IMG/VR virus record: IMGVR_UViG_643692022_000005
DNA length: 37,716 nt
Source of the DNA: a virus
Taxonomy: Duplodnaviria > Heunggongvirae > Uroviricota > Caudoviricetes
Direction: 5' to 3' (one strand)
Each line of letters opens with the position of its first letter. Within the stretch, counting starts at the first letter, position 1. Positions 283 through 7,537 of the stretch are shown in pieces. The translations under genes and the position numbers were made by a program. The notes under the pieces are model-generated. The model had not been told where the DNA came from. It made no database searches and saw only the letters and a program-made list of their open reading frames with translations.

Positions 283-1446
283 TTAAATGCTTCCTCCCGC
301 TTCTGCTTTTCCTTTGTGGGACAAATTTGGGACATCATCGTTAAAAATAGCGTCAATTTGCTTTGCGTGCTCGGTCAGGTGATTAGGTGCCAGGTGAGCA
401 TACCTGCGTACCATTTCGATTGATTCCCATCCTCCCATTTCCTGAAGCACAGATAACGGCACGCCAGCCTGAATAAGCCAGCTCGCCCATGTGTGTCTCA
501 GGTCATGAAAACGGAAATCCTCAATACCTGCTCGTCTGCACGCTGCCTTCCAGGCTCTGCCGTCATCGACTCGCATCTTTCTGACTGCAGGAGTGAGAGA
601 GCCATCAGGCCGTCTTGCTGGCTTTGTGTGTACGAACACAAATTTATGATGGTTGCCTATCTGGTCTCGCAGAACCTTACATGCAGTATCATTCAGCGCT
701 ACGCCAATAGCTCTGTTTGATTTACTGTCTTCCGGGTTGATCCACGCAACACGGCGCTGCATGTCTATCTGTTGCCACTCCAAATTGATAATGTTCGAAC
801 GCCGTAAACCTGTCGCCAGTGCAAACTTGACGACAGACTTTAATGGCTCCGGGCATTCATCAATCAGCCTTTTTGCTTCCTCCTTTTCCAGCCACCGCAC
901 ACGCTTGTTGCGTACTGTCGGTATCTTGATGACCGGTGCTTTCTCCAGCCATTTCCAGTCACGTTCTGCTGCTCTCAGAATGGCTTTCATCAGTGCAAGA
1001 TGCTTTGCCTTGGTGGCAGTGGTGACTGGTTTAGCGACATATTCAGGCACAGGTTTTCCTTTCTTCCTTGCCGCCTCTGCCTTTGCTTTCCATATCTCAA
1101 GGTGATTACGGTTATGCATCCTGCTGACGGCTGAGTAAATCCTTGCCTCAGTAATATCCTTTAGCCGCACACCTTCAAAATGCTCAAGCCAGAATCCCAT
1201 CCGGCCTTTATCTGTATCGAGCGATTTCTTATCTGATTTCTCTTCAATCCAGCGCAAGCATGCTTCTTCAAACGTCACATCTGGAAAATCACCAAGCCTG
1301 TCTACTCGCCAGAGCTCAGCTTTTCGTTTGTCGTGCAGCTCCTGCGCTTGCCGCTTGTCCTTTGTGCCAAGAGATTCCTTAATTCGCTTCCCGCCCGGGA
1401 GCGAGTACGAGGCGTACCATATTTCACCTCTGCGGAAGAGTGACAT
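283..1446 (-). CDS. int: Tyrosine-type site-specific integrase
   Basis: 387-aa ORF starting [14 protein letters not shown], with C-terminal [39 protein letters not shown] (tyrosine recombinase R-H-R-Y signature region); position beside a tRNA. Confidence 0.92.
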
Positions 1447-1673
1447 TTTCTTTCCTCTGTTATGCCATCACCCGCGCTCACCTGGACAGTATGCAGCGGA
1501 GACTGAAGCGCCGCAATGCAGGCTTGTCGTGTTGTGAGGTAAGGGGATTTATTCTTAGTGGGATCTTTGCGTGTTGCCTGCAAACGCCCTGTGCGTATCC
1601 AGTTAATGGCAGTCGGTCTGGATATCTTGAGAAAATGACAGGCCTCATCGAGTGTGAGGCTGTATGGCTCCAT
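1302..1673 (-). CDS. xis: Excisionase-like DNA-binding protein
   Basis: Start taken at the internal Met ([31 protein letters not shown]), whose ATG overlaps the upstream stop as TAATG. Helix-turn-helix-like N-terminus. The 3-prime end overlaps the integrase start by about 145 nt in another frame. Confidence 0.6.
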
Positions 1674-1978
1674 TATTTCACCTCTTGTTGTGACATTGTT
1701 GAAAAATGGATACCAGCTCGTTGCTGCCAGACGATCCAACCGAGAGTCATATCCCATGCCATGTATTCTTTATCGCCGTTTTTTGCTCTCCGACGATCTA
1801 CTAAGTCACCGAAACGCTTTTCCATGAATAATTCATAAGCTTCGCGTTCATCTGGTTCTACTTCCAGAGATAGGAGTGCGATTTCATAAGCACGGCGCTC
1901 AATATCGTCTCGCACGTCAAGGCTGCTGATACGCTCTTTAATTTCTTTAATCAGTTCTTTGTCGGTAAAAGTGGTCAT
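1673..1978 (-). CDS. Hypothetical phage early protein
   Basis: 101-aa ORF, co-directional and tightly packed with neighbours; no motif recognised. Confidence 0.6.
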   Translation of the reverse strand: MTTFTDKELIKEIKERISSLDVRDDIERRAYEIALLSLEVEPDEREAYELFMEKRFGDLVDRRRAKNGDKEYMAWDMTLGWIVWQQRAGIHFSTMSQQEVK

Positions 1979-2340
1979 TATGCTCCAGCCTCCGGTGCTT
2001 TTGGCATTACTGCCCAGTGAGTGATATTGACGTTTTCAAGGTCCCCGACCTGAAATGTCCACTGCCATTCTCCGGTTTCTTTTTGTCCCCAGGTGTACCA
2101 GAGAGAACGCCAGCCAATTAGCCAGCCTTCTCCGTTAGCATCGAATAACAAAACACTTTCATTTGCTGGTGGCAGTTCAGTTGACACTGGTATTACTTTG
2201 TTTTCCTGTGCTGCACATTTAGCTTCAAGCGCATCGAATTTACGCACTAGGTATTCAGCATCTGTTTCATTTACTTTCAGATCTCGCGGTACACATCTCC
2301 CACGAAGAAACCCTTCCATTTCGAAAACATTCATGCGCAT
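1978..2340 (-). CDS. DUF551-like phage protein
   Basis: 120-aa ORF with a Trp-rich C-terminal half ending ...NITHWAVMPKAPE, which resembles the DUF551 family from memory. Confidence 0.6.
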   Translation of the reverse strand: MRMNVFEMEGFLRGRCVPRDLKVNETDAEYLVRKFDALEAKCAAQENKVIPVSTELPPANESVLLFDANGEGWLIGWRSLWYTWGQKETGEWQWTFQVGDLENVNITHWAVMPKAPEAGA

Positions 2341-2867
2341 TTGCGTAACTCCGATAACTCGTTAAAGCGTTCCATAAACATCCCGTAGGCATGGCCCGGA
2401 GCCAGTGGAATCACGTTGAACATCTCTGTTGCCGGGATACCTTCCAGTACAGGCCAGAAAGAGCCATCATCAAGCCCGAGATCGCGGCGTTCGGTTGCCA
2501 GCATGATGAGATCGGCATATTTCACGGGCGTACTCATAACTGGGGGTAACCCGTATTTCTCACGGATTACGGCGTCTATTTTTTCTTCCATTTGTTTATA
2601 GTCAGGAAGAAGGCGTTTCAGTGGTGCGGGAATGTCCTGGCAATACGCTTCTGTTGCATCATGCATTAACGCTTCAAAAGCAAATTCCTGCGGCACCAGC
2701 TGGCTGCAAAGAACCGCATGTTGGGCGACGCTGTAGAAGTGCGAAAGATGACCGGCAAAGCGACAGATATTTGAAAGGGAAACCGCGATATCGTTAATAT
2801 CGATGTCGTCTTTATTTATCCTGTCATAATAAAAATGCTTCCCGGAAAAAGTTTTAATAAATGACAT
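2331..2867 (-). CDS. HD-domain phosphohydrolase (YfdR-like 5-prime-deoxynucleotidase)
   Basis: HD-type motifs (H...HD...E: SVAQHAVLCSQL, MHDATEAY). Start placed at the internal ATG (MSFIKTF) preceded by GGAG at 6-nt spacing; the track ORF runs to 2894 from a GTG. Confidence 0.75.
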   Translation of the reverse strand: MSFIKTFSGKHFYYDRINKDDIDINDIAVSLSNICRFAGHLSHFYSVAQHAVLCSQLVPQEFAFEALMHDATEAYCQDIPAPLKRLLPDYKQMEEKIDAVIREKYGLPPVMSTPVKYADLIMLATERRDLGLDDGSFWPVLEGIPATEMFNVIPLAPGHAYGMFMERFNELSELRKCA

Positions 2868-2994: not shown

Positions 2995-3819
2995 TCAGGC
3001 GGTGAAAGTACCAATAAAGGTTTCTACTTTGCTGTCCTTGAATTTCTCAACAAGCAGATCACGAAATTCGTTAGCCATTTCTTCCTGCACCGCCTCCAGC
3101 TGAATAATGCGCAGAACCAGTACAGGACGATCGCCAGTGATAATACTGAGGCGTAATTTAAACGGACGTTCTTTCAGACCTTCAAACGGAACGCATTTAA
3201 ATTCAAATGTCACTGGCATAATGTCTTTGGTCTTCGCTTCGACAGACTCCATCAGGGAGCGTTTGCCGCTGAAGTCATTATCTTCAAAATCAGCGGTCTG
3301 GTTTGCTTCAATCGTGATTTTACGGACAGCCGCAGCCGCTTTTGTTGCCTGAATAGCGTCACCATTAGCATCAAAGCCCACAAGATAGTCGGCCCAGTCT
3401 TCAATCCATTCTGCCAGTGACTTCTGGGAGTTACGCTCGCCGTTAACAGACAACAGAGCAGAGAACGGTGCTGTCTTTTTCAGTTTGAGTGTGGCGGTGT
3501 TATCTGCGTGACCTGGTTCATCAATAGTACCCAGGTTAAGCACACTGACGGCACGCATATTATCAGCATCGATAAAGCAGCGGGTGCCTTCATCTGCAAG
3601 ATCTTTAGAATAACGGGTAAAGTCATCGATGCTGGCAGTGGAAAGCGCACCACGGAAACGGAAGCGATTTAAATTAAATTTTTCCAGATCATGAATGCGG
3701 AAATTCTCAGGCAATGCCACAGCATCGGCACCAATCTTACTGATAATTTCATTAACACCCTGAGCAGAAATAAGGGCATGGATTTGATTAATTGCGGTTG
3801 CGTCTAAGTTCTGAGACAT
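2995..3819 (-). CDS. YfdQ-like (DUF2303-like) phage protein
   Basis: 274-aa ORF; family assignment recalled from the E. coli CPS-53 prophage, where it sits next to an HD-domain gene as it does here. Confidence 0.6.
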
Positions 3820-3884: not shown

Positions 3885-4247
3885 TTAACGACCTGCTGCG
3901 CGGAGTTTTCCGTCAGGTTCACCGGCAAGAGTCAGTAACTGTCCCTGGTCTTCCTGCAGAATAGTCAGGCGACCACCGCGATTGACATACATCGGCGTTT
4001 CGGTGGTGTCTTCTTCGGAAATTTTCCCGCGGTTAGTCGGGCGAACATATGAGAGTTTGTGTTTGATTTTCACTCGGTTCTCATCAAACGGTTCGATTTC
4101 CAGGTTGAGCGAGACCTTACCTTTGGTTTTCGTGTTCATCACACCGGAAGCGACTTCACTGAGAACTGCGCCGATTTTGGTTTCAAATACGCCGCCGTCC
4201 AGCTCCCCGATAAATGCCTGCACATCAGTACTGCGTTCGCTAGCCAT
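3885..4247 (-). CDS. Hypothetical phage early protein
   Basis: Start at the internal Met (MASERSTDVQAFIGELDGG) preceded by GAGGAG at 9-nt spacing. The longer track ORF (to 4565) runs through a structured non-coding region and is not credible as coding. Confidence 0.65.
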   Translation of the reverse strand: MASERSTDVQAFIGELDGGVFETKIGAVLSEVASGVMNTKTKGKVSLNLEIEPFDENRVKIKHKLSYVRPTNRGKISEEDTTETPMYVNRGGRLTILQEDQGQLLTLAGEPDGKLRAAGR

Positions 4248-4295
4248 TTTGCTGCTCCTCATCATATCGACCCTGCAAGGTCGGTTAGTTTCTCC

Positions 4296-4384
4296 ACAAA
4301 ACAGAGAAGAACACCTGCGGTGACTGCCGCCCGGATGGATTGGGTTATGAGCCCGTCGTCCGGTGATGCTCTTCTCTGTTTTGT
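4296..4384. repeat. Long perfect inverted repeat (15-bp arms, 59-nt spacer) forming a large stem-loop
   Basis: 4296-4310 ACAAAACAGAGAAGA pairs perfectly with 4370-4384 TCTTCTCTGTTTTGT. By my estimate a 15-bp inverted repeat within 100 nt is expected about 0.003 times by chance in a window this size. Confidence 0.7.
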
Positions 4385-4648
4385 AAAAAGGACGGTACCA
4401 GCCGGAAGCAAGGGTACAAACTGGTACCGCCAGGACTACACACAGCATAAAGTTGTGGTGCCGGGTGCCTCCCGGTGCCTGGCGAAGGTTGCACACCAGA
4501 CGGGTGGGTATCCACAGAAGGTCGACTGTCAGCCTCAACCTTAACCCGCGTGCGCTGAGCCGCATTCACCACAACGCTAAGAATTCTCTCTGGTTGAAAA
4601 TACTTAGCTGTTATGTGCCTGCTTTTAGCCACATCAGGCGAGGTGGAC

Positions 4649-4700
4649 CTGGTTATTCCCCAACAACAAGGATTCGGTTAATCTGGTTATCCCCAACAAC
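4649..4700 (+). repeat. Two direct repeats (CTGGTTAT(T)CCCCAACAAC) upstream of the 4716 gene
   Basis: Copies at 4649-4667 and 4683-4700 differ by one inserted T; the second ends 15 bp before the ATG. Each contains a TTATCCCCA-like core one or two mismatches from a DnaA-box consensus. Confidence 0.6.
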
Positions 4701-4715
4701 GCAAAAGGAAAAGAA

Positions 4716-5150
4716 ATGTCCGGTAATATCTATACGCTGTACAAATCCCACTGTGAAAATGTTGGAAAGTATCGGGGCATTGAAATCAGTGGGGTAGTGT
4801 CATCAGTCGAAATAAGCAAAGTTGAATCAAGGGCAACATTACTTACTCTTCTGGACCTTGTCTTACATGAGCACCGGAAGAAATTCGGCACTCCCTATAA
4901 TCAGTTGAATGGGAAAAAGGCTCTGGTTCACCTTATTCTGATGAAGCATCACTGGATGCCAAAACAGATTAATGAGATGAAATTTGATGAACTTCTTCTT
5001 TCAATTCAGGATGAACTCACACTTGATAAAATAAGCGTAACCGCCCAGAAATTTTTAGATTATCGAGACTGGAGATCACAAATTCATCACTTTGATGATT
5101 TTGACGAAAATGAATGGGATCCTAATTTGTCTGCACAATATCTAAAGTAA
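4716..5150 (+). CDS. Hypothetical protein (AT-rich cargo gene)
   Basis: 144-aa ORF in AT-rich DNA, where a long ORF is unlikely by chance; purine-rich RBS-like stretch (AAAAGGAAAAG) upstream. No recognised motif. Opposite strand to the flanking early operon. Confidence 0.6.
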   Translation: MSGNIYTLYKSHCENVGKYRGIEISGVVSSVEISKVESRATLLTLLDLVLHEHRKKFGTPYNQLNGKKALVHLILMKHHWMPKQINEMKFDELLLSIQDELTLDKISVTAQKFLDYRDWRSQIHHFDDFDENEWDPNLSAQYLK

Positions 5151-5328
5151 CATCCTGTGATAAAACCGTGATTTCCTGATCCAGTTTTTTTAAGGAGTCT
5201 ATTGTTTCCTGTCGATAAGACAGCACTTCACGAAGCTGGTTTATAGCTGCCAGCTTCTTTGCCATCCACTCGTAAATTTCCTCATTTGTGTATCCGGGCG
5301 CGACGATTTTTGGTTCTGTTTTGTGCAT
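5122..5328 (-). CDS. Small hypothetical protein (68 aa, predicted helical/coiled-coil)
   Basis: Internal ATG (MHKTEPKIV) preceded by a strong RBS GAGGAGGTG at 5-nt spacing. Converges on and overlaps the 3-prime end of the 4716-5150 gene by 29 nt. Confidence 0.5.
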   Translation of the reverse strand: MHKTEPKIVAPGYTNEEIYEWMAKKLAAINQLREVLSYRQETIDSLKKLDQEITVLSQDVTLDIVQTN

Positions 5329-5373
5329 TTCACACCTCCTCAAGTTATCAGTTACTTGTTGATGGGGACCAGA

Positions 5374-5385
5374 TTGTTAAAGAGC
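5374..5385 (-). promoter_or_regulatory. boxA-like antitermination element (GCTCTTTAACAA on the minus strand)
   Basis: Exact 12-mer match to the core of the rrn/lambdoid boxA consensus as I recall it (TGCTCTTTAACAA), in the orientation of a leftward early transcript and directly after a hairpin. Confidence 0.4.
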
Positions 5386-5387
5386 TA

Positions 5388-5410
5388 AGCGTCCTGTAGG
5401 GCGCTTTTTT
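5388..5410 (+). terminator. Rho-independent terminator (plus-strand reading)
   Basis: Stem AGCGTCC/GGGCGCT (7 bp, one G-U) with loop TGTA, followed by TTTTTT. On the minus strand the same hairpin precedes the boxA-like element instead. Confidence 0.55.
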
Positions 5411-5593
5411 GTTGCTAACGAATCATCCTGGACTTCATATGCCCCAGGCGGCTACTTCGTGGGCGTCCTGCCTGTTCGTTGTTTTAACATCTTTAAGTTG
5501 TAATTCAGTTGTGGTTTTGAATGTTGTCAACAACTTTATGTGGTTTGAACGAGTAGCCAAGGAGTGCAAGGATTATCAAAAAAAGGAGGTTGT
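5411..5593. promoter_or_regulatory. Divergent promoter/operator-like region (candidate leftward early promoter and rightward cargo promoter)
   Basis: Perfect TTGACA -35 hexamer on the minus strand (top 5525-5530) with a weak -10 about 17 bp downstream; clustered GTTGT/ACAAC motifs like those in the cI-cro intergenic region; AGGAGG RBS at 5583-5588. Confidence 0.4.
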
Positions 5594-6484
5594 ATGGAAG
5601 ACGCGCTTTACGCTTTTAATTACACACAGAACCGGGACAAGTTATTTGCTAACTTGATTAGCATCATTGATGGAATCATTGCAGATGGAGTTGTCCGTGA
5701 AGAGGAGGTTCTTTACTTAGATACATGGTTACTTGAAGCAAAGCAGATTATCAATAATGGAGTTATAAAAAGTCTATCAGCACGGGTGTCGGATATTCTT
5801 GCGGATGGAATAATCACATCAGAAGAACGTGATGACCTTAAAAATAGCCTTCTCCAAATACAGAGGGAAATTCTTGATATCCCTGAAATTGATTTTTACT
5901 CCAAGGATGTAGATGTCCATTTACTTAATGGACTATGTAAAGGATTAATTGCTGATCGGAACTTAACTCAAGAAGAAATAAGATATCTTAATTGGTGGCT
6001 TGAGCAAAATGGAGCTTTGAAGAACAACTACCCAGGAAAAAAACTTTATGCACTTGTAAAGGAAATTCTTAAAGATGGGGTTATTACTGAAGATGAGAGT
6101 TTAACTCTACATAAGGCATTAGTAGACTTCACAGGATGTGACTTGGAAAGTGGGGTGGTGGATGGTTTGGCGACCAGGCTGCCTATTGATGTAGGGGCTT
6201 CGATAGAGTTAGAGGGTAAAACCTATTGTCTTACAGGCACTTTTGTTGCAGGAAAGAGAGCCGTAGTTGAAAATTTGATTAAAAATGCTGGTGGGAACAT
6301 CAGTAGTGGAATTACTCAAAAGTTGGATTTTTTAGTAATTGGGACGCTTTCCTCCCGTGATTGGAAATTCTCAAGTCACGGAAGGAAGATCGAAAAAGCT
6401 ATATCTTATAGGGATGATAATGGTGCAAAACTTAAAATTATTTCTGAAGAAATGCTTTTCGATGCATTACCAAGTTCGCGATGA
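5594..6484 (+). CDS. Protein with four TerB-like helical repeats and a C-terminal BRCT-like domain (candidate defence/exclusion gene)
   Basis: Start at the ATG preceded by AGGAGG (the track ORF begins 30 nt earlier). Four repeats of a D-G-[VI]-[VI]-x-x-E-E helical motif; C-terminus GKTYCLTGTF...AGGNISSGITQKLDFLVIG matches the BRCT pattern of NAD-dependent ligases. AT-rich; 3-prime end overlaps the cI 3-prime end. Confidence 0.75.
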   Translation: MEDALYAFNYTQNRDKLFANLISIIDGIIADGVVREEEVLYLDTWLLEAKQIINNGVIKSLSARVSDILADGIITSEERDDLKNSLLQIQREILDIPEIDFYSKDVDVHLLNGLCKGLIADRNLTQEEIRYLNWWLEQNGALKNNYPGKKLYALVKEILKDGVITEDESLTLHKALVDFTGCDLESGVVDGLATRLPIDVGASIELEGKTYCLTGTFVAGKRAVVENLIKNAGGNISSGITQKLDFLVIGTLSSRDWKFSSHGRKIEKAISYRDDNGAKLKIISEEMLFDALPSSR

Positions 6485-7153
6485 CCAGAATACCCTACCT
6501 ATAACATGAATTCTGGCTCGTCTATCTTCAAAGGTGAGTATTTCATCTGGGTACTCATCTTTGTTGAAGCTTCTAAGAATCAAGCCACCGTCAGGTAAGT
6601 TGATAAGTATTTTAACCCTTAGCAATACACCATCTCGTACGGCATAAAGATCGCCATCACGAATAGGAACGGTTTGAGAAATATCAACGGCAACAAGATC
6701 TCCATTATTGAGAACCGGTAATAAACTGTTCCCCCATATTTTTACGATCTTGGCATTAGATGCACATACGCCAGATTTTCTCAAATCTGCTCTTCTTAAC
6801 GGAAACCAGTCAATAGCTGATTCAACTATTTCAGCCAGACATCCGTTACCTGCCGATAACTCGACATCTAAAACAGGAATGTTTACGAAAATATCGGGGT
6901 CTAATGCGGTGCTTTCTGCTTCTTTTACAACAAGATCAGGTATGGATGCGTTGTCTTCAATACCAAGTTGTAACCACTTTTGTGATACACCTAAAACTTT
7001 TGCAATTTCTTTAATTTTGCGCGGTTGTAGAGTTTCGCCATTCTCTATTTTGGCTACAGATTGTTGTGAAAGTCCAATTTTTTCAGCTAGTTGAGCTTGG
7101 CTCATGCCAGCTATCTCTCTACCTATCTTTAATCGTTCTGCCAGTGTTTTCAC
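6467..7153 (-). CDS. cI: CI-like repressor (HTH plus S24 LexA-like peptidase domain)
   Basis: N-terminal HTH (MSQAQLAEKIGLSQQSVAKIENGET) and a C-terminal S24-like autoproteolysis domain (GNSLLPVLNNGDLVAVD...); divergent from a Cro-like gene; GTG start. Confidence 0.88.
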   Translation of the reverse strand: MKTLAERLKIGREIAGMSQAQLAEKIGLSQQSVAKIENGETLQPRKIKEIAKVLGVSQKWLQLGIEDNASIPDLVVKEAESTALDPDIFVNIPVLDVELSAGNGCLAEIVESAIDWFPLRRADLRKSGVCASNAKIVKIWGNSLLPVLNNGDLVAVDISQTVPIRDGDLYAVRDGVLLRVKILINLPDGGLILRSFNKDEYPDEILTFEDRRARIHVIGRVFWSSRTW

Positions 7154-7288
7154 AACATATCCCTCTCTTTTTTGATGAGGTTACAACTTTATGTTTTAGC
7201 TTTCCAACACCTAAAAGTTGTGATAAAAGTTGTTAATGTTGTATTCTTGCAACTCGTAACAACTTAACTACCTAAAAAGGAGAAAGCT
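7154..7288. promoter_or_regulatory. Immunity-region operator/promoter (OR-like) between cI and cro
   Basis: 135-bp divergent intergenic region with repeated ACAACTT/AAGTTGT half-sites in inverted orientation (7183, 7215, 7228, 7259) and AAGGAG before cro. Confidence 0.6.
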
Positions 7289-7537
7289 ATGACACCTGAG
7301 CAATTAGCCTTATCGGAGGCAATCGCTCTGGCTGGTGGTCAATCAGAATTGGCTCGGAAGCTCACAGCCAGCAGCGGTCATTTAGTAAAGCAACAACATG
7401 TCTGGAACTGGTTGAACAGAGAAAAGCGTCCCCCTGCAAAGCTCTCGATATTCATTGAAAAGACCACTGGCATATCAAAAGAAAAATTACGTCCAGATAT
7501 TTTTCAAAAGATTAAAGATTCATCAGATGAAAAGTAA
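7289..7537 (+). CDS. cro: Cro-like (YdaS-like) HTH regulator
   Basis: 82-aa ORF divergent from cI, with HTH (QSELARKLTASSGHLVKQ) and AAGGAG RBS. Confidence 0.8.
   Translation: MTPEQLALSEAIALAGGQSELARKLTASSGHLVKQQHVWNWLNREKRPPAKLSIFIEKTTGISKEKLRPDIFQKIKDSSDEK

Follow-up and report, generated by a model that had tools for sequence, protein, structure and literature searches.

A conserved convergent gene pair forms a probably mobile accessory cassette in temperate phages of Enterobacterales

Virus record IMGVR_UViG_643692022_000005 is a 37,716-nucleotide (nt) stretch of DNA (the window, taken at its full length) from a lambdoid E. coli prophage of the SfIV/CPS-53-like kind. Here we describe two convergent, overlapping open reading frames (ORFs) in it, ORF144 on the plus strand (4716–5150) and ORF68 on the minus strand (5122–5328). 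Both are real genes, and the segment 4701–5352 that holds them is best explained as a mobile two-gene accessory cassette, or moron, of temperate Enterobacterales phages. We further propose that the large gene makes a lysogen-expressed accessory protein that is coupled to a partner made with the lytic operon. This mechanism as a whole, with its neutralisation, toggle and defence role, we rate at a probability of roughly 40%, and the architecture of the cassette, taken together, we regard as very probably correct.

Results

Both reading frames are genes

ORF144 starts with ATG, encodes 144 amino acids (aa) and is the sole plus-strand gene amid the minus-strand early-left genes. ORF68 starts with the ATG at 5328–5326, preceded at a 4-nt spacing by the Shine-Dalgarno sequence GAGGAGGTG (5333–5341, minus strand). 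The ORF68 form given by the ORF caller begins at TTG 5343, and the form with the ATG and this ribosome-binding site (RBS) is the one conserved elsewhere. The two coding regions overlap tail to tail by 29 nt (5122–5150). The convergent ORFs, their overlap and the strong RBS are as described in a first-pass annotation, which was made from the letters of this DNA.

The same annotation regarded the two genes as orphans, and this proved wrong. ORF144 belongs to NCBIfam NF033230, the 'ECs1072 family phage-associated protein', with a score of 157.8 bits (cutoff 70; expectation value (E) 1.7e-46) and its residues 4–144 aligned on profile positions 2–142, and also to phrog_5286 (E 1.5e-90). ORF68 belongs to phrog_1744, aligned over residues 1–68 of its 68 (E 4.8e-34), and its relatives are found in phrog_3501 and phrog_8304 as well (6, 5 and 1 of the ten aligned partners match phrog_1744, phrog_3501 and phrog_8304, respectively). 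NF033230, phrog_5286 and phrog_1744 are all annotated 'unknown function', and such families were the only ones returned when both proteins plus 24 and 10 family members were scanned against Pfam, NCBIfam, PHROGs and PADLOC.

In a full search of 1.84 billion proteins with HMMER, ORF144 gave 76 representative clusters at E<1e-3, all of them ~143–161 aa long. Wider word-indexed searches with ORF68 returned Escherichia and Shigella sequences and one metagenomic sequence only, and single-protein scans of viral sequences gave no matches; the distant ORF68 partners were detectable via synteny only. The annotation of Shigella phage SfIV lists ORF144 as orf36 with 'no clear function' (PMC3851460), and ORF68 is missing from it and from several RefSeq genomes.

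Both genes are under selection as proteins. Compared with a 52%-identical homologue, ORF144 has a nonsynonymous divergence (pN) of 0.32 and a synonymous divergence (pS) of 0.78, which indicates purifying selection. In all 81 of the near-identical loci examined, ORF68 is uninterrupted and its RBS takes the form GAGGAG(G/A)TG. It remains open, with the RBS GGAG, in L005, a divergent metagenomic locus of 58% nt identity. Relative to L005 its frame has a nonsynonymous-to-synonymous rate ratio (dN/dS) of 0.27, the lowest among the six frames, and the constraint is concentrated in the N-terminal 33 codons (pN 0.23, pS 0.85).

A run of seven T on the plus strand (5185–5191; A7 in ORF68, codons K47-K48-L49) is the point where the frameshifted variants of ORF68 diverge. 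Examples are the 80–85-aa form in E. albertii (L004) and the database proteins P0034–P0043. They may reflect slippage, sequencing error or weak C-terminal constraint.

The pair is conserved at three genome positions

For the survey of pairing, DNA around divergent ECs1072-family genes was fetched and searched with hidden Markov models (HMMs) of both families. Of the 26 loci with a recognisable large gene, 22 have a homologous small ORF that converges on this gene and overlaps its 3′ end by 29–113 nt. The paired loci amount to ~15 lineages of Enterobacterales phages, with the large genes down to ~25–40% identity, and come from E. coli, Shigella, E. albertii, Sakai Sp4, Salmonella ST64B, Photorhabdus, Superficieibacter, Franconibacter, Limnobaculum and IMG/VR contigs. 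At a Klebsiella phage locus (L143), the small ORF is present and the large gene was not recovered intact. Among 5,426 complete E. coli genomes, ORF144 is in 415, ORF68 in 411 and both in at least 406, that is ~7.6% or about 1 in 13; phage SfIV has both genes too.

The cassette is located at the start of the pL operon in the window, SfIV, L123 and L124. In Sakai Sp4, the home of ECs1072 itself, it is between cII and O, at the position of oop. In ST64B, Klebsiella phage KPP5665-2, L125 and L136, it is between Q and the holin gene. The location next to the repressor, which the first-pass annotation had emphasised, is not a defining feature, since the cassettes of Sakai Sp4, ST64B and the Klebsiella phages lie elsewhere. 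The polarity is kept in 13 of the 14 informative loci, where the long flanking genes on both sides are on the small-ORF strand and the large gene alone is opposite. At all three genome positions, the small gene is thus aligned with the lytic operon and the large gene faces it.

Because adjacency, convergence and overlap survive both sequence divergence and relocation, they argue for a functional unit. The idea that the two genes function as a pair was raised at first sight of the window, and it gains from the overlapping layout being kept across very divergent homologues.

In the Sakai-type cassette (L008 19114–19677, plus strand, which is Sakai Sp4, and L120 2643–3206), the small ORF begins 14 nt past the cII stop codon. 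It is without a stop at the usual place and reads on for ~170 aa, antisense through ~316 nt of ECs1072. This extended ORF is unannotated in RefSeq, and the extension is putatively coding. In L124, a split KAP-family P-loop NTPase (850–2405, plus strand; 170 + 341 aa; Pfam KAP_NTPase 6.8e-6) is upstream of the ECs1072-family gene on the same strand, which hints at a cluster of accessory or defence genes in this pL-proximal site.

The cassette is inserted into a shared backbone

Comparison with backbone-sharing prophages that carry another plus-strand gene places the cassette bounds at ~4701 and ~5352, so the cassette consists of the two ORFs and their RBSs only. In the same slot, the sibling prophages have a different plus-strand gene of 171–173 aa that ends at the same terminator; hence, the 4701–5352 site is a cargo hotspot. 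This alternative cargo (L006 2980–3495, L007 2956–3477) has an N-terminal coiled coil and a C-terminal CxxC...CxxC, and is without a small partner.

Two features are those of a moron. The cassette interrupts a backbone that is shared up to ~4700 and again from ~5353. Its base composition deviates, with a guanine-cytosine (GC) content of 39.5% over 4716–5328 against 50.2% in the whole window and 52% in the neighbouring 4242–4715. The earlier remark that the pair is AT-rich holds to this extent, but the pair is not unique in it, as its neighbours, a BRCT gene (38% GC) and cI (40% GC), are similarly AT-rich. A strong plus-strand terminator follows at 5387–5412, and a scan for a consensus promoter ahead of ORF144 was negative.

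The upstream backbone (4651–4700, plus strand) contains a direct repeat, GGTTAT(T)CCCCAACAAC, with copies at 4651–4667 and 4685–4700. It is common to the prophages with alternative cargo and conserved also in L005. The repeat region is a candidate for either a promoter or regulatory site of the plus-strand cargo or a part of the leftward RNA.

Transcripts of the two genes are predicted to run into each other

The intrinsic terminator at 5387–5412 (plus strand), with an 8-bp stem of AAGCGTCC and GGGCGCTT followed by a T-run, is the top terminator match of the region. Its hairpin is more stable as plus-strand RNA (–11.5 kcal/mol) than as minus-strand RNA (–7.5 kcal/mol). The counterpart in L124 has –17 vs –8.2 kcal/mol, and a like asymmetry is seen in L005. 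The asymmetry arises because a G·U pair on one strand turns into a C·A mismatch on the other. In L006 and L007, the alternative cargo gene stops just ahead of the same hairpin. The ORF144 transcript probably ends at this site.

The terminator is 237 nt past the ORF144 stop codon, so the 3′ untranslated region (UTR) of the ORF144 mRNA would be antisense to all of ORF68. There is no terminator between ORF144 and ORF68, and each transcript must therefore run into the other gene. A minus-strand terminator candidate at 5047–5032 was disregarded as a weak match that by eye is not conserved in L005.

On the minus strand, the leader of the leftward transcript contains an exact boxA-type sequence, GCTCTTTAACAA (5374–5385), immediately 3′ of the hairpin. 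This sequence is unrepeated, as an exact match, in the window and belongs to the prophage backbone, not to the cassette. The hairpin and boxA are found also in the pL leader of L124, a phage of unrelated immunity, and of the ~800 E. coli genomes that have the element 5353–5420, half are without the ORF144/ORF68 pair. The boxA is of the rrn/P22 type, and the order of hairpin then boxA is the reverse of lambda nut; the two elements are at 3352–3392 in L124, 1193–1235 in L005 and 3521–3560 in L006. Neither an N-like protein nor a second exact boxA was found in the window.

The left operator and promoter (OL/pL) are probably at 5486–5550 (minus strand), where ACAACTT/AAGTTGT half-sites are in common with the right operator (OR, 7183–7265). 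The segment has three operator-like blocks in common with OR, repeats D3, D9, D11 and I4–I6 link it to 7182–7278, and 7 of the 10 ACAACTT heptamers of the window are within the OL and OR regions. A TTGACA at 5530–5525 reads leftward, toward ORF68; a consensus promoter scan called none at 5486–5550, the –10 element (TGAATT) being weak. At the same position SfIV has GGGTACAT operators of its own and a leftward TTGACA-16-CATAAT promoter.

ORF68 heads the early-left operon, being the first ORF past the likely OL/pL and co-oriented with the operon. By its position it is the probable first ORF of the pL transcript, which the first-pass annotation had offered as an alternative.

A homologue of the large gene is transcribed in lysogens

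The large gene of Salmonella prophage ST64B is an ECs1072 relative by HMM (E 2e-34) and by blastp (29% identity, E 9e-16), and the small gene next to it is detected by HMM (E 2e-28). In S. Typhimurium D23580, they are STMMW_20121 (435 nt) and STMMW_20131 (sb50), respectively, with a 71-nt overlap. STMMW_20121 is transcribed in almost all lysogenic conditions, from its own promoter with a mapped transcription start site and antisense to the lytic genes (Owen et al. 2020, PMC7067206). The read maps of ST64B are strand-resolved (PMC7067206). The suspected expression in lysogens is thereby supported, indirectly, for the large gene through this homologue.

Across 17 conditions, the large gene is at 70–270 transcripts per million (TPM) in 16 and the small gene ranges over 23–258 TPM, and the flanking holin, lysozyme and Q genes are at 0.1–40 TPM (Table S5, PMC7067206). 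Peroxide and nitric oxide (NO) shocks are ST64B-inducing conditions (PMC7067206). From the InSPI2 condition, the large gene goes down from 269 to 113 TPM by peroxide and to 105 TPM by NO shock, and the small gene goes up from 108 to 148 and 258 TPM, respectively (PMC7067206). Late stationary phase gives 4.9 TPM for the large gene and 101 TPM for the small one (PMC7067206), values which show that the two are transcribed independently. In E. coli Sakai, ECs1072 was recorded as a regulated transcript in a microarray study (PMC2241611).

Predicted proteins

ORF144 is predicted to be a soluble, all-helical protein of nine helices (AlphaFold2 (AF2) confidence scores pLDDT 78.5 and pTM 0.78), and neither a structural nor a sequence relative was found for it in PDB or BFVD. 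The ORF68 model has ~14 N-terminal coil residues and then one long amphipathic helix at residues 15–67 (AF2 pLDDT 86). In the family alignment, the coil carries the conserved motif P-h-h-x-x-G-x-(T/S)-x-(E/Q)(E/Q)(L/I)-x-x-W with an invariant Trp21. ORF68 also has a heptad-like hydrophobic stripe and an isoelectric point (pI) of 4.97; both proteins are mildly acidic. No transmembrane segment was found in either one, the maximal 19-residue Kyte-Doolittle means being 0.84 and 0.29. Remote homology and structure prediction, proposed earlier as a check, thus yielded the families NF033230/phrog_5286 and phrog_1744 but no fold match and no functional annotation.

Known small early regulators do not fit ORF68. 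A lambda N-type antiterminator was rejected for the pI of 4.97 and the absence of an Arg-rich motif, and the boxA leader is present in ~400 genomes without ORF68. A lambda CIII analogue was likewise rejected: hhalign against a CIII sequence gave a probability of 0.3% (E 0.19, 12 columns), and ORF68 had no match to Pfam Lambda_CIII.

Surroundings of the cassette

Hundreds of E. coli prophages match the region at 99–100% identity, and Shigella phage SfIV matches it at 99.5%. On the minus strand are the integrase gene (283–1446), the early-left genes yfdT, yfdR, yfdQ and yfdP (up to ~4241) and the cI gene for an S24/HTH CI-type repressor (6467–7153), and cro is on the plus strand (7289–7537).

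The BRCT gene (5594–6484, plus strand) is placed between OL/pL and cI and converges on cI with an 18-nt overlap. Its 296-aa protein has the BRCT domain at the C-terminus (Pfam 1.3e-6; phrog_3989) and a weak PADLOC match to PDC-S48 (2.4e-7). SfIV is without this gene, and there the pair adjoins cI. The BRCT gene is another candidate for lysogen-expressed cargo.

Between the pair and yfdP, inside the early-left transcript, the segment 4383–4605 (minus strand) matches Rfam STnc100 with 41.9 bits (gathering score 47; E 7e-7). STnc100 is a prophage small RNA lately tied to PasD. In RefSeq this stretch is a 'frameshifted hypothetical protein', and the sequence around the match is common to the window and ~1,900 E. 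coli genomes.

Discussion

We propose the following mechanism. The large gene would be an independent transcription unit set against the lytic operon and expressed in the lysogen, and its product a soluble helical protein of an undescribed fold. ORF68 would be made with the lytic operon, and the large protein would most likely be bound through its conserved Trp motif near the N-terminus. The ORF144 mRNA is expected to reach the terminator at 5387–5412 and thereby to cover ORF68 in antisense, and the pL transcription to run antisense over ORF144. The pair could then work as a toggle, with ORF144 on in lysogeny. When the lytic operon fires, ORF144 may be silenced by the convergent transcription or by the antisense RNA, and its product may be neutralised by ORF68.

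The most likely role would be a phage-conflict function expressed in the lysogen, which would act by exclusion or abortive infection and to which the carrier phage would itself be immune. Taken to its full extent, the cassette would be a previously unrecognised widespread prophage conflict system, in which a protein antidote and antisense transcription together turn off a lysogen-expressed effector of a new fold. These off-switches would be wired into the lytic operon of the host phage (pL, pR or pR′). The carrier would be exempt, and the superinfecting phages would not. We consider this full version rather unlikely.

Several observations weigh against the proposed mechanism. The small gene of ST64B is also transcribed in lysogens (23–258 TPM) and is not strictly lytic-only (PMC7067206), which could be constitutive pR′-type transcription. 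No recognisable small partner accompanies the 56%-identical large gene of L003 or the three copies in a Symbiopectobacterium genome, so the large gene is able to occur by itself. In its C-terminal half, ORF68 evolves near-neutrally, with dN/dS of ~0.9, and frameshifted ORF68 variants exist at the A7 run. In the window, neither scanning for a consensus nor comparing eleven upstream regions by position revealed a convincing sigma-70 promoter for ORF144. Neither protein matched anything among defence (PADLOC), toxin–antitoxin (TA), Pfam, PDB or BFVD entries, and PADLOC-DB 2.0 gave 0 families for ORF144, ORF68 and 24 family members. Accordingly, nothing identifies the toxin, antitoxin, exclusion or anti-defence activity that was suspected at first.

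One alternative is a TA-like addiction or abortive-infection pair active in the lysogen, in which ORF144 inhibits growth, ORF68 is a labile protein antidote and the overlap tunes their ratio. The tight pairing, the acidic and helical small partner and the independent transcription of both ST64B homologues in lysogens (4.9 vs 101 TPM in late stationary phase) would suit it, and convergent 3′-overlapping layouts are known in type I TA loci. Nevertheless, we find it unlikely. In the window and Sakai Sp4, the small gene is in a CI-repressed early operon, which would leave the antidote off and the toxin on in the lysogen, and in L003 the large gene survives without its partner. As for type II, TA genes are co-transcribed in an operon, but this pair is convergent on opposite strands at every locus, and neither protein matches a known TA superfamily. 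Type I, in which a non-coding antisense RNA counters a small hydrophobic peptide, is not a better fit, since both ORFs are selected as proteins and have no transmembrane segment, and only the convergent 3′ overlap agrees.

Another alternative moves the function to the lysis–lysogeny decision, where the anti-oriented transcript, its protein or both would damp leaky or early lytic transcription, in the manner of OOP RNA on cII or of the face-to-face promoters in phage 186, and ORF68 would be an ordinary early regulator. It draws on the cassette being always at the start of a lytic operon (after pL, cII or Q) and on the Sakai Sp4 large gene being anti-oriented at the oop position between cII and O. 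Owen et al. also label STMMW_20121 a candidate 'accessory or regulatory' gene (PMC7067206). However, prophages of the same backbone are without the pair or with other cargo, which makes it dispensable for the switch, and the three insertion positions act on different operons. Moreover, a pure RNA-level role does not explain the purifying selection on both proteins. We judge such a device to be quite unlikely.

The two genes might instead be mere neighbours, with ORF144 a moron in its own right and ORF68 a small early gene that has nothing to do with it and is linked by adjacency alone. The L003 large gene without a small one and the weakly constrained C-terminal half of ORF68 can be so read, and the interaction between ORF144 and ORF68 is putative. 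Linkage alone, however, is not expected to endure in mosaic phage genomes, and here adjacency, orientation and overlap are kept at 25–40% identity and in three genome contexts, which makes this account improbable. Least credible of all is that ORF68 is a chance ORF antisense to the ORF144 3′ UTR. It is indeed unannotated in SfIV and several RefSeq genomes and was counted as wholly between the ORF144 stop codon and the terminator. Against this stand its strong conserved RBS, the 81 intact loci of 81, the lowest dN/dS of the six frames and the homologues with an invariant Trp in ~15 lineages and three PHROG families.

The coupling of a lysogen-expressed protein to a lytic-operon partner is the reading that we prefer, and part of what it draws on is already known. 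The sequences and families are in databases, and the transcript of one homologue has been noted. The convergent partner of the ECs1072-family genes and the polarity rule at three genome positions are new, as we found no published description of them. A literature search that included accession, PHROG and NCBIfam identifiers returned no description of the conserved convergent partner, the polarity rule or a function.

The cassette is present in about 1 in 13 complete E. coli genomes and in serotype-converting Shigella phages, Salmonella ST64B and Klebsiella prophages. Its conserved polarity, with a large gene that faces the lytic operon, a small gene aligned with it and an overlap of their 3′ ends, offers a testable design rule for how a prophage might have an accessory or defence function that is on in lysogeny and off in the phage's own lytic growth. 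Should the pair turn out to act in defence or in a TA-like way, the prophage defence repertoire would gain a new protein family and a new regulatory layout, and the unexplained lysogenic transcript of ST64B would be accounted for.

Among the known systems, the ST64B pair of STMMW_20121 and STMMW_20131 (sb50) is the closest, being homologous, convergent with a 71-nt 3′ overlap and having its large gene antisense to lytic genes and under its own promoter in lysogeny (PMC7067206). It differs in being between Q and holin, not at pL, and its large gene is only ~29% identical to ORF144. In that study, the function was left unstudied and the small partner and the pairing undiscussed (PMC7067206).

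The lambdoid morons, a concept of Hendrix and colleagues exemplified by lambda rexAB/sieB, bor and lom, are likewise extra units of deviant composition between backbone genes. They share with the cassette a terminator and a slot with alternative cargo in related phages, and their expression from the prophage is predicted for the cassette as well. Unlike the classical morons, which are single and insulated, the cassette adds a second, opposite gene that overlaps the first and is wired into the lytic operon.

Exclusion with cognate self-immunity is known for lambda Rex/ren, P22 SieB/Esc and BstA/aba. What confers the exemption differs among them, from an in-frame internal product (Esc) to a DNA element (aba) and a distant gene (ren). 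The proposed logic is alike, in that a lysogen protein harmful to lytic growth would be matched by a phage-borne exemption, and the window cassette is near the immunity region. There is no sequence or fold similarity to these systems, the candidate antidote of the cassette is a separate convergent gene and its defence role is a proposal. The bstA gene is discussed, and OOP is treated, in the study of Owen et al. (PMC7067206).

As to the layout itself, the partners of the cassette are unlike OOP/cII, the 186 pR/pL promoters and the type I TA loci in being both conserved protein-coding genes, neither of them a small hydrophobic toxin, and control at the RNA level would be only a part of the proposed mechanism. 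Lambda OOP RNA acts against cII, and phage 186 has face-to-face promoter interference between pR and pL. Common to all of these and the cassette are two convergent units with a 3′ overlap, and the Sakai Sp4 large gene is placed exactly at the oop position.

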